Of a DNA stretch of 32,000 bases, positions 1-2,142 are shown piece after piece (position 1 is the first letter of the stretch; every line of letters begins with the position of its first letter). Position numbers and translations under genes: made by a program. The notes beneath the pieces were generated by a model, which searched no databases, was not told the DNA's origin, and saw nothing but the letters and a program-made list of their open reading frames with translations. Location of the stretch: contig LT962688.1 in the NCBI GenBank assembly GCA_900234795.1, positions 2,130,001-2,162,000 on the forward strand, read 5' to 3'. The stretch is from Methylorubrum extorquens. Its GTDB lineage: Bacteria > Pseudomonadota > Alphaproteobacteria > Rhizobiales > Beijerinckiaceae.

Positions 1-2142
1 GCGGCGGGGCTCCGGAATGCTCGGGTCGCCCTCCAGCAACTGCGCGTAGCCGAGCACGGCGTTGAGCGGCGTGCGCAATTCGTGGCTGATGCCGACGACG
101 TAGCGGCTCTTGGCGAGGTTGGCGGCCTCCGCCGTCTCCTTGGCCTGCTGCAGCTTGGCGTCGGTAATCTTGTGGGCGGCGATCTCGGCCTCGTAGAGGG
201 CGGTCTGGCGCGCGGTTTCCTCCTGCGCGACGCGGCGGCTCTCCTGAGCCAGCACGAACAGCCATGCGACCACGCCGAGAATGACGATCAGGATGAAGAA
301 CAGGCTGGTGAGCGCCGCGCGCAAGGTTTCACCATGCTCCGGATGCGCGGCGGCGGCCCCCGCATGGACGATGACGAGGATCAGCCCGATCACCGTGATC
401 AGGGTCAGCATCAGCGCGATGTAGCGGCCGAGCGGCGCGCCGATCCAGGCGGCGGTGCGGGCGGGCAGCACGCGGGCGAGCGCGTCGTGGGCTTGTACCT
501 CCAGCCGTCCGTGCGGCTTGCACAGGTCGCCGCAGCGGGCATCGAGCGAGCAGCACAGCGAGCAGATCGGCCCCGAATAGGCCGGGCACTGGGCCATGTC
601 CTCGGCCTCGAACGGATGCTCGCAGACCCGGCAGGTGATCTCCGTCCGATCCCAGGCAGTCTGCGGGTCGCGGGCGAGGTAGCGCTTGCCCCCGGTCGCC
701 AGGGCGATGGCGGGTGCGGCGGCGAAGGCGGTGGCGAGCGCCAGCATCGGCGCGAAGGGCTGCAGCGCGTCGCCGAACAGGCCGGCATGGATCAGGCAGC
801 CAGCGAGCAGCGAGAGCACCATCGCCCCAGTGCCCACGGGGTTGATGGCGTAGAGATGCGCGCGCTTGAACTCGATGCCCGGCGGCGACAGGCCGAGCGG
901 TTTGTTGACGGCGAGATCCGCGGCGAGCGCTCCGACCCAGGCCGAGACCACGCAGGCATAGAGCGGCAGCGTGCTCTCGATGGTCTTGTCGATGCCGAGT
1001 TCCATCAGCAGCAGCGCGATGGCGACGTTGAACACGAGCCAGACCACCCGGCCCGGATGGCTATGCGTGAGGCGCGAGAAGAAGTTCGACCACGCGATCG
1101 AGCCGGCATAGGCGTTGGTCACGTTGATCTTGAGCTGCGAGATCACCACGAACAGGCCGGTCAGCGCCAGCGCGACGCCGGGCGAGCCCGAGACGTAGCC
1201 GAAGGCGACCGCGTACATCTGCGTCGGCTCGGCGGCGCGCTCCGGCGAGACGCCATGGCCGAGCGCCAGCACCGTGAGGAAGGCGCCGAGCAGGATCTTG
1301 AACATGCCGGGCACGATCCAGCCGGCGCCCGCCGAGAGCACCCCGACCCACCAGCGCCAATCGCCCCTCCCCTGAGGCGGCGGCATGAACCGCAAGAAGT
1401 CGACCTGCTCGCCGACCTGGGCCAGCAGTGCCAGCAGGATGCCGGAGGCGAGCCCGAACAGGCGCAGGTCGAAGCCCGCGCCCGCGGCTTCCAGGCCGGG
1501 ATAGCCGGTGAAGGCTTCGAACGGCACCGGCCCCGAGAGCCAGATGCAGAGGAGCGGCAGCAGGTTGAGGCCGATCCAGAGCGGCTGCGTCCAGAGCTGG
1601 AACCGGCTGATGAGGCGGATGCCGTAGATCACCAGCGGGATCACCGCCCCCGCACTGACGATGTAGCCGATCCACAGCGGCAGGCCGAAGCAGAGCTGCA
1701 GCGCCAGCGCCATGATCGCGGCTTCGATGGCGAAGAACAGGAAGGTGAAGCCGGCATAGATCAGCGACGTGATCGTCGAGCCGAGATAGCCGAAGCCCGC
1801 TCCGCGGGTCAGCAGGTCGATATCGACCCCGTAGCGCGCGGCGTAGATCGTGATCGGCGCGGCGGTCGCGAAGATGATGAGCCCGACGACGAGCACGGCG
1901 GCGAAGGTGTTGGTGAAGCCGGTGGCGAGCACCAGCGTGCCGCCGATGGCCTCCAGCGCCAGGAACGAGAGCGAGCCCAAAGCCGTCTGCGCGATGCGGA
2001 AGGACGACCAGCGCCGCGCCTTCTTGGCGGTGAAGCGCAGGGCATAGTCTTCCAGCGTCTCGTCGGCGACGAGGCGGTTGTAGTCCCGACGGATCGGGAT
2101 GATGGACCGGGCGCTCAGGGGGCCGTCCTCACGATGGGCGGA
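1..2142 (-). CDS. Sensor histidine kinase with an N-terminal NCS1 (purine-cytosine/allantoin permease-like) multi-TM domain. It is partial: the ATPase and any receiver domain lie beyond the left window edge.
   Basis: The minus-strand frame is open for 714 codons from 2142 to base 1. It is missing from the ORF track only because it runs off the window. My translation: ..[56 protein letters not shown].. followed by about 12 hydrophobic segments (permease-like). Next comes the Cys cluster [39 protein letters not shown] (633->520), two more TM segments, a coiled coil and the H-box [28 protein letters not shown] (His codon 84->82). The + ORF 82..2217 is its antisense shadow. The start codon is unresolved (see findings). 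Confidence 0.8.

Follow-up and report, generated by a model that had tools for sequence, protein, structure and literature searches.

A hybrid sensor kinase with a predicted NCS1-like input domain and an eight-cysteine linker beside the urea and amide uptake genes of Methylorubrum extorquens

RESULTS

Kinase gene and start codon

The left edge of a 32,000-nucleotide (nt) stretch of the Methylorubrum extorquens genome (assembly GCA_900234795.1, contig LT962688.1, positions 2,130,001 to 2,162,000), here called the window, carries on its minus strand the first part of a gene for a hybrid sensor histidine kinase. The gene diverges from a set of urt and fmd genes for the uptake and use of urea and short-chain amides. 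Our observations comprise homology, predicted fold, cysteine conservation, gene neighborhoods, and conserved DNA motifs; from these we infer the ligand, the metal, the signaling path, and the direction of regulation. The window protein is 99% identical to the M. extorquens protein P0001, which has 1087 amino acids as annotated and is labelled only "histidine kinase." Its domain order is 12 transmembrane (TM) helices, a cluster of eight cysteines (Cys8), 2 further TM helices, a long helix, and an H-box. Full-length relatives add HATPase_c, a receiver domain (REC), and a tail of about 95 amino acids in the part that lies beyond the window. The kinase features are as follows:

1 to 2118, minus strand: hybrid sensor histidine kinase, first 706 codons; the gene leaves the window at its left edge
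2116 to 2130, minus strand: probable CTG start codon (2118-2116) with GAGGA at 2130-2126 and a 7-nt spacer
691 to 2031, minus strand: 12-TM NCS1-like (CodB/Mhp1-like, LeuT-fold) domain, predicted from profile matches, the AlphaFold2 (AF2) model, and Foldseek; Pfam negative
520 to 633, minus strand: cytoplasmic Cys8 domain between TM12 and TM13, a predicted binuclear Zn knot; exact pattern match
about 235 to 444, minus strand: extra TM hairpin, TM13-TM14, from hydropathy and AF2 helices 562-591 and 593 onwards
109 to 234, minus strand: predicted cytoplasmic signaling helix, continuous with TM14 and running into DHp (AF2 single helix 593-667)
1 to 108, minus strand: start of HisKA (DHp), with a Pfam HisKA match (E 2e-7) to the last 30 residues

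Translation verified the minus-strand frame that an original prediction made from the sequence had described, and showed it open from 2142 to the left window edge. Its extent, which placed the beginning of the gene at 2142, was revised, as a CTG at 2118 is a likelier start. From an in-frame TGA (2145-2143) to a TTG at 1980, the frame contains no ATG, GTG, or TTG; i.e., no standard start codon occurs before codon 55. Public annotation of P0001 begins at TTG 1980, losing approximately 46 conserved residues, and homologues conserve the codons located 5' of this TTG. The CTG and its GAGGA are kept in four Methylorubrum-clade loci, and other Methylobacterium species carry an ATG within one codon of the CTG position. 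Judged by this comparison, translation likely starts at the non-canonical CTG 2118, from which all residues are numbered here.

NCS1-like membrane domain

The membrane part had originally been described as a full NCS1-type permease-like domain. Hydropathy and an AF2 model, which covers the 706 window-encoded residues, agree on 12 TM helices before the Cys cluster. A Pfam scan of 714 window-encoded residues returned HisKA only: Transp_cyt_pur (PF02133) gave no match at E ≤ 1, and no SSF match was found in the window protein. A single-sequence phmmer search of the window protein against the PDB likewise yielded nothing relevant. Pfam assigned no transporter family to the standalone relatives described below, save for a sub-threshold PF02133 match of the distant relative P0261 (E 1.4e-3 over 385 profile positions).

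The more sensitive profile and structure comparisons gave a consistent result. The NCBIfam CodB profile (NF008241) matches the window protein with an E value of 3.5e-5. The match spans ~150 residues at the start of the membrane domain, and its score, 22.7 bits where the family cut-off is 326, marks a distant relative and not an ordinary NCS1 member. A profile built from 13 standalone relatives matches the sequence of the CodB structure 7QOA (E 7e-6) over TM1 to TM6, and the matched stretch takes in a D-[FY]-x-R-F motif where TM6 ends. The AF2 model is confident (pLDDT, 86.7; pTM, 0.82), shows no sizeable periplasmic domain in the kinase, and has CodB (7QOA; TMt, 0.80) and Mhp1 (2JLN; TMt, 0.71) as its top five PDB matches in Foldseek. 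SSS, Nramp, and APC structures rank below these, with TMt values of 0.50 to 0.61 for the SSS proteins SiaT, NIS, and SGLT. Sequence identity to CodB and Mhp1 is only 15 to 19%. Core polar residues D240, R243, Q328, K330, N332, N335, and D401 are common to kinase-fused and standalone forms.

Read literally, the Pfam null for PF02133 would refute the original description, but because these sensitive profile and structure tests outweigh it, we accepted a distant NCS1 homology. We conclude from sequence profiles and the model that the membrane domain branched off from the NCS1 lineage and has diverged from it. The original description therefore holds for the lineage and the fold, whereas the expected Pfam match, and with it ordinary family membership, was not found.

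Cys8 domain

The pattern C-x2-C-x11-C-x7-C-x2-CC-x5-C-x3-C, reported earlier at 633 to 520, matched exactly. Conservation was assessed in an alignment of 98 kinase-fused and standalone sequences with 31 to 85% identity to the window protein. Four residues (C496, C499, C519, and C522) are invariant, and the others (C511, C523, C529, and C533) are each at least 90% conserved, so that all eight reach this level; all eight are present in both fused and standalone forms. By NCS1 topology, the domain is assigned to the cytoplasm.

In the AF2 model, the Cys8 domain consists of small beta-hairpins and a helix; the first CxxC sits on the knuckle of a beta-hairpin, and a short helix begins at C519/C522. 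Treble-clef Zn sites usually show this arrangement of one CxxC in a knuckle and another where a helix begins. On this model, C496, C499, C519, and C522 would form such a site and the other four Cys residues a second one, a pairing that we infer from the predicted geometry. The isolated domain had no Pfam match at E ≤ 10, and Foldseek returned nothing significant; its best matches were RING, PHD, FYVE, and ZZ binuclear zinc fingers, all at E ≥ 0.36. The domain probably binds two Zn ions, and Cys spacing and predicted fold make Zn more likely than an iron-sulfur (Fe-S) cluster.

Signaling helix, kinase core, and response regulator

Hydropathy, AF2, and Pfam agree on two extra TM helices after the Cys cluster, a long helix where a coiled coil had previously been noted, and a HisKA H-box. 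The H-box, HELRTP, lies at 84-67, with the codon of the phospho-acceptor His at 84-82. P0001 has HATPase_c and Response_reg on record, and hmmscan confirmed both domains in P0015, which is 85% identical to the window protein. The protein thus has the makeup of a HisKA-type hybrid kinase, with H-box and DHp in the window and HATPase_c and a C-terminal receiver in full-length relatives.

The conserved tail after the P0001 receiver (approximately 95 residues; about 12980-13264 of locus L001) bears the motif LGRIG[HY]VRGIEAKL and belongs to no Pfam family. This C-terminal tail (96 amino acids) was considered as an Hpt domain and rejected: it had no Pfam match at E ≤ 10, hhalign against the Hpt domains of relatives gave a probability of 0.1%, and the candidate His is replaced by Tyr in P0090 and P0100. 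Some relatives carry a real Hpt at the tail position.

A gene for a REC-GerE (NarL/FixJ-type) regulator follows the kinase gene directly and in the same orientation in 77 of 80 loci (sampled as described below). In L001, where it lies just beyond the window edge and overlaps the kinase stop, it encodes 300 amino acids with REC at 9-121 and GerE at 238-290; Pfam returned only insignificant matches for the region in between. Its position points to this protein as the putative cognate partner of the kinase.

Family distribution and standalone forms

An exhaustive HMMER search with residues 1 to 560 as the query placed module homologues in 1737 clusters (50% identity) at E ≤ 1e-3, and 423 of these reached E ≤ 1e-30. 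A word-indexed search from P0261 alone yielded 8 proteins only. The module, including the Cys knot, precedes HK-REC, HK-REC-Hpt, GAF- or PAS-HK, and PAS-GAF-PAS-GGDEF-EAL outputs. Given these varied fusions, the module is, as far as domain combinations tell, a portable sensor.

Complete standalone proteins of ~555 amino acids, which end just past the Cys cluster, are found in Alicyclobacillus, Actinobacteria, Chloroflexi, and other Gram-positives and bear the database names "purine-cytosine permease family" or "allantoin permease." Urea or amide genes adjoin the standalone form in all six loci inspected:

Alicyclobacillus acidocaldarius: neighbors fmdA-fmdB-CN_hydrolase
Catenulispora: neighbors an AmiC-like gene and ureABCFGD
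Thermogemmatispora: neighbors ureFDABCG
Aneurinibacillus: neighbors two CN_hydrolase genes
Kitasatospora: neighbors a MarR gene and an AmiC-like gene
Sulfobacillus: neighbor fmdA

These neighbors, more than any other evidence, indicate urea and short-chain amides as the putative ligand class, and they suggest that the standalone form is a urea/short-chain-amide permease. The actinobacterial Peripla_BP_5 genes located 5' of the standalone gene (L005, 6735-7838; L089, 4499-5593) encode proteins without a signal peptide, and because of this we regard the proteins as cytoplasmic and AmiC-like. In Actinobacteria, the AmiC-like gene and nearby MarR genes suggest that the same pathway is regulated in another way.

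Divergent urt-fmd array and conserved neighborhood

Pfam verified the predicted array of urtA-E, fmdA, fmdB, porin, and amiE genes divergent from the kinase gene, and added an alpha/beta hydrolase gene that had been missing from it:

2390 to 7434, plus strand: urtABCDE-like (FmdDEF-type) urea/short-chain-amide ABC importer operon (Peripla_BP_5, two BPD_transp_2, two ABC_tran)
2390 to 3643, plus strand: urtA-like Peripla_BP_5 gene
7446 to 8462, plus strand: alpha/beta hydrolase, between urtE and fmdA
8626 to 9857, plus strand: fmdA (FmdA_AmdA), with two frameshifts in the window
9922 to 10239, plus strand: fmdB, zinc ribbon
10298 to 11866, plus strand: OprB-type porin
11942 to 12994, plus strand: AmiE-like CN_hydrolase

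For synteny, the best 80 of at least 595 confirmed loci were analyzed, from a scan of one genome per species; these 80 belong to alpha-, beta-, and gammaproteobacteria. A divergent urtA-like gene is present in 76 of them, and the remaining 4 have less than 1 kb of upstream sequence. The linkage, originally proposed to be checked across Rhizobiales, thus extends far beyond that order. After the urt genes, fmdA is found in 41 and fmdB in 40 of the 80 loci. Two urt classes can be told apart: in class 1, UrtA is 74 to 98% identical to the window UrtA and fmdA-fmdB usually lie downstream; in class 2, the identity is about 37% and ureC is sometimes nearby. Among the markers tested, nucleobase or allantoin catabolic genes were not seen at the 6 standalone and 80 fused loci. 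The alpha/beta hydrolase occupies the urtE-fmdA position in 6 of the 80 loci, all from Methylobacterium or Methylorubrum.

Compared with L001, from another M. extorquens genome, where fmdA is intact (409 codons), the fmdA gene of the window is split over three frames by two 1-bp insertions in short homopolymer runs (around 8989 and 9337). Either the sequence is in error here or the gene has recently become a pseudogene. Besides the usual CxxC...CxxC zinc ribbon, FmdB carries a C-terminal tail rich in Cys (GCGCC), which makes it a second small Cys-rich protein at the locus in addition to the Cys8 domain.

A second nitrogen-scavenging cluster (13543 to 21764) lies farther along the window on the minus strand, with a divergent LysR gene at 20802-21764:

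13543 to 15132, minus strand: amidase-signature enzyme
16526 to 18307, minus strand: fused BPD_transp_2/ABC_tran protein
18304 to 19179, minus strand: permease of the second cluster
19306 to 20550, minus strand: Peripla_BP_6 binding protein

It is followed by a gene for an unrelated soluble hybrid kinase (22845 to 24878, minus strand) with several PAS domains, HisKA, HATPase_c, and a receiver.

Predicted regulatory DNA between the kinase gene and urtA

Two conserved motifs, both predicted regulatory elements, were found in the region between the divergent genes:

2276 to 2291, no strand assigned: 16-bp palindrome TACGCAAAACAGCGTA (TACG-N8-CGTA), about 100 bp upstream of the urtA ATG
2153 to 2166, minus strand: sigma-54-type -24/-12 element GGCACGTCCGTTGC, near-consensus, 35 nt upstream of the CTG start

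Motif counts were obtained from 67 kinase-urtA intergenic regions and compared with shuffled sequences. TACG-N8-CGTA was present in 57 of the 67 regions, against a mean of 0.16 and a maximum of 2 in shuffles. The spacing of the arms is strictly 8 bp, since spacings of 4 to 7 and of 9 to 12 were never found in these regions, and the palindrome occurs with both urt classes. The window contains one exact match, where 0.07 would be expected. One-mismatch palindromes elsewhere in the window were at chance level, and there were no extra sites upstream of fmdA, the porin gene, or amiE. We propose the palindrome as a candidate operator for a dimer of the REC-GerE regulator.

The sigma-54-type element is the sole exact match within the window. 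Elements of this kind (at least 10 of 12 positions) were found in the direction of the kinase gene in 24 of 67 loci, compared to 0.44 in shuffles, and in the direction of urtA in 1 of 67. The kinase gene appears to have a sigma-54-type promoter, which would place the sensor under nitrogen control. This arrangement suggests two layers of control, in which nitrogen status would set the amount of the sensor and the ligand its activity. Bradyrhizobium-type loci also bear TGCACC half-sites that resemble NtrC sites. A scan of the kinase-urtA intergenic region for sigma-70 promoters and terminators found nothing. Rfam detected no riboswitch or other RNA element over the whole window, and because of this result an explanation by a guanidine- or urea-type riboswitch is unsupported.

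DISCUSSION

The original prediction is largely supported by these computational checks. We think it probable that the kinase is a transceptor-like two-component sensor with an NCS1-derived input, which would respond to urea, to short-chain amides (e.g., formamide and acetamide), or to both. Its input module would derive from an NCS1-type secondary transporter with 12 TM helices in the LeuT fold, always accompanied by the cytoplasmic Cys8 domain after TM12. Ligand binding, or the movement of a transport cycle, in the permease-like core would be the signal. The resulting conformational change could be relayed first by the Cys8 knot and then by the TM13-14 hairpin to the continuous helix, which becomes DHp and would set the activity of HisKA and HATPase. 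The phosphoryl group may then pass to the REC-GerE regulator encoded directly downstream, which would bind TACG-N8-CGTA in the divergent promoter region and control the urt-fmd-porin-amidase operon.

Several points weigh against this interpretation. The ligand is assigned from the gene neighborhood only, and, to our knowledge, descriptions of NCS1 transport have so far concerned nucleobases, hydantoins, allantoin, and vitamins. The Pfam null for PF02133 and the CodB score far under its family cut-off both set the membrane domain apart from typical transporters of this lineage. Neither Pfam nor hhalign detected an Hpt domain in this REC-bearing hybrid kinase, a weak point for the proposed phosphotransfer to the regulator. 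As to the operator, an exact palindrome is missing from 10 of the 67 loci, and the Methylorubrum palindrome departs from the majority at inner half-site positions. UrtA, the high-affinity binding protein of the same locus, could also be the real sensor.

The last point leads to a reading in which the permease-like domain is a mere scaffold and the kinase senses the Urt importer, or ligand-loaded UrtA, by co-sensing or flux sensing comparable to that of DcuS/DctA, UhpB/UhpC, and BceS/BceAB. The tight kinase-urt linkage (76/80 loci) fits such a mechanism, as does the pairing of some standalone relatives with a Peripla_BP_5 gene, and UrtA-type proteins bind the presumed ligands with high affinity. 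We nevertheless regard it as unlikely. The module, with the same invariant polar TM residues, stands alone beside urease or formamidase genes where no ABC genes adjoin it; the actinobacterial Peripla_BP_5 partners, with no signal peptide, would be cytoplasmic AmiC-like proteins and not extracytoplasmic ones; and the model leaves the kinase no sizeable periplasmic domain. It is similarly improbable that the same architecture responds to another ligand (a nucleobase, allantoin, a hydantoin, guanidine, cyanate, or another urea-yielding nitrogen compound) and that scavenging is induced indirectly. The nearest structural and sequence relatives do carry cytosine (CodB) and hydantoins (Mhp1), although at the low identity given above, and the database names of the standalone forms point the same way, but these names are inherited from weak similarity. 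What surrounds the module are amidases, formamidase, urease, and urea/amide ABC importers; for the markers tested, nucleobase or allantoin catabolic genes were near 0 of 6 standalone and 0 of 80 fused loci.

It could also be asked whether the Cys8 cluster itself is the real sensor, as an Fe-S center or a redox thiol/Zn switch for redox or metal status, with the membrane domain as a passive anchor. Eight strictly conserved cytoplasmic Cys residues would be in keeping with such a role, and Fe-S-based sensor kinases exist, the chloroplast sensor kinase being an example (PMC6949291). We consider this very unlikely, as the invariant C496, C499, C519, and C522 look like a structural treble-clef Zn site in the model, the weak fold matches are all Zn fingers, and the cluster is found in standalone proteins that have no signaling domain. 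The Cys spacing also does not contain CxxCxxCxxxCP, the classic ferredoxin motif.

Beyond the probable role of the kinase as a urea/amide sensor, a broader view of the family can be put forward tentatively, as a possibility that we favor somewhat less. The module may be an unrecognized branch of the NCS1 superfamily, a standalone urea/amide permease of Gram-positives with an obligatory Zn2Cys8 domain, which Proteobacteria would have recruited repeatedly as an input for two-component and cyclic di-GMP (c-di-GMP) signaling. The Cys8 domain would then be a counterpart of STAC that couples the transport cycle to the outputs.

The likeness to CbrA-type transceptors drawn in the original prediction is apt as an analogy but does not amount to membership, as the kinase has neither an SLC5 nor a STAC domain. 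SLC5/STAC kinases (CbrA, CrbS/MxtR, and RpuS) similarly carry a full LeuT-fold transporter domain N-terminal to the histidine kinase and a small cytoplasmic linker after the last transporter helix, which is also found on standalone transporters. They control uptake and catabolic genes for the solute that is sensed (PMC13022988, PMC9100948, PMC7096432). In the family described here, by contrast, the transporter domain is NCS1-like and not SLC5, with SSS structures ranking below CodB and Mhp1; the linker is a Cys8 beta-hairpin/helix knot and not a four-helix STAC; and two extra TM helices follow the linker, with no PAS before DHp in the window protein. CodB (7QOA) and Mhp1 (2JLN) are the best structural matches, with significant profile similarity over TM1 to TM6, whereas the kinase adds Cys8 and signaling domains, scores below the Pfam and NCBIfam cut-offs, and has a urea/amide rather than a nucleobase/hydantoin context. 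Amt-fused sensors, i.e., the ammonium sensor kinase Ks-Amt5 and the diguanylate cyclase Sd-Amt1 (PMC5764959, PMC11152129), also use the fold of a nitrogen-compound transporter as the input of a histidine kinase or c-di-GMP enzyme, but their trimeric Amt channel fold and their ligand are unrelated.

The fmdCABDEF cluster of Methylophilus methylotrophus comprises the same target genes as those found here. Where a 2024 review treats this cluster, FmdB is the sole putative regulator named, and the terms "two-component" and "histidine kinase" are absent from the text of the review (PMC10781810). A 2026 genome report on Ectopseudomonas guguanensis mentions the same gene order in passing, with urtABCDE adjoining a hybrid kinase and a LuxR-type regulator close to fmdA, but does not analyze it (PMC13296017). 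We found no functional study of this kinase family in the literature searched, which did not cover subscription journals, so that an earlier description is possible. Transporter-derived sensor kinases have been described as rare (PMC13022988), and the same literature yielded the SLC5/STAC and Amt-fused sensors as the sole examples.

Taken on homology and predicted structure, this is a widespread transporter-derived sensor kinase that combines an NCS1-type fold and an undescribed Cys8 linker. The family would add NCS1 as a third transporter lineage to those known in sensor kinases, with a linker domain of its own, and its 1737 clusters (50% identity) and its presence in at least 595 species genomes show how widespread it is. 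Its standalone members suggest a new class of bacterial urea/amide permeases, and relatives with c-di-GMP outputs would tie small-amide sensing to c-di-GMP signaling. The kinase would fill a gap in the classical fmd/urt cluster for urea and formamide scavenging, for which a regulator that senses the inducer has been missing. Because its target operon is defined and an operator is predicted, the system is directly testable, and it may be of practical value for formamide- or urea-inducible expression systems.

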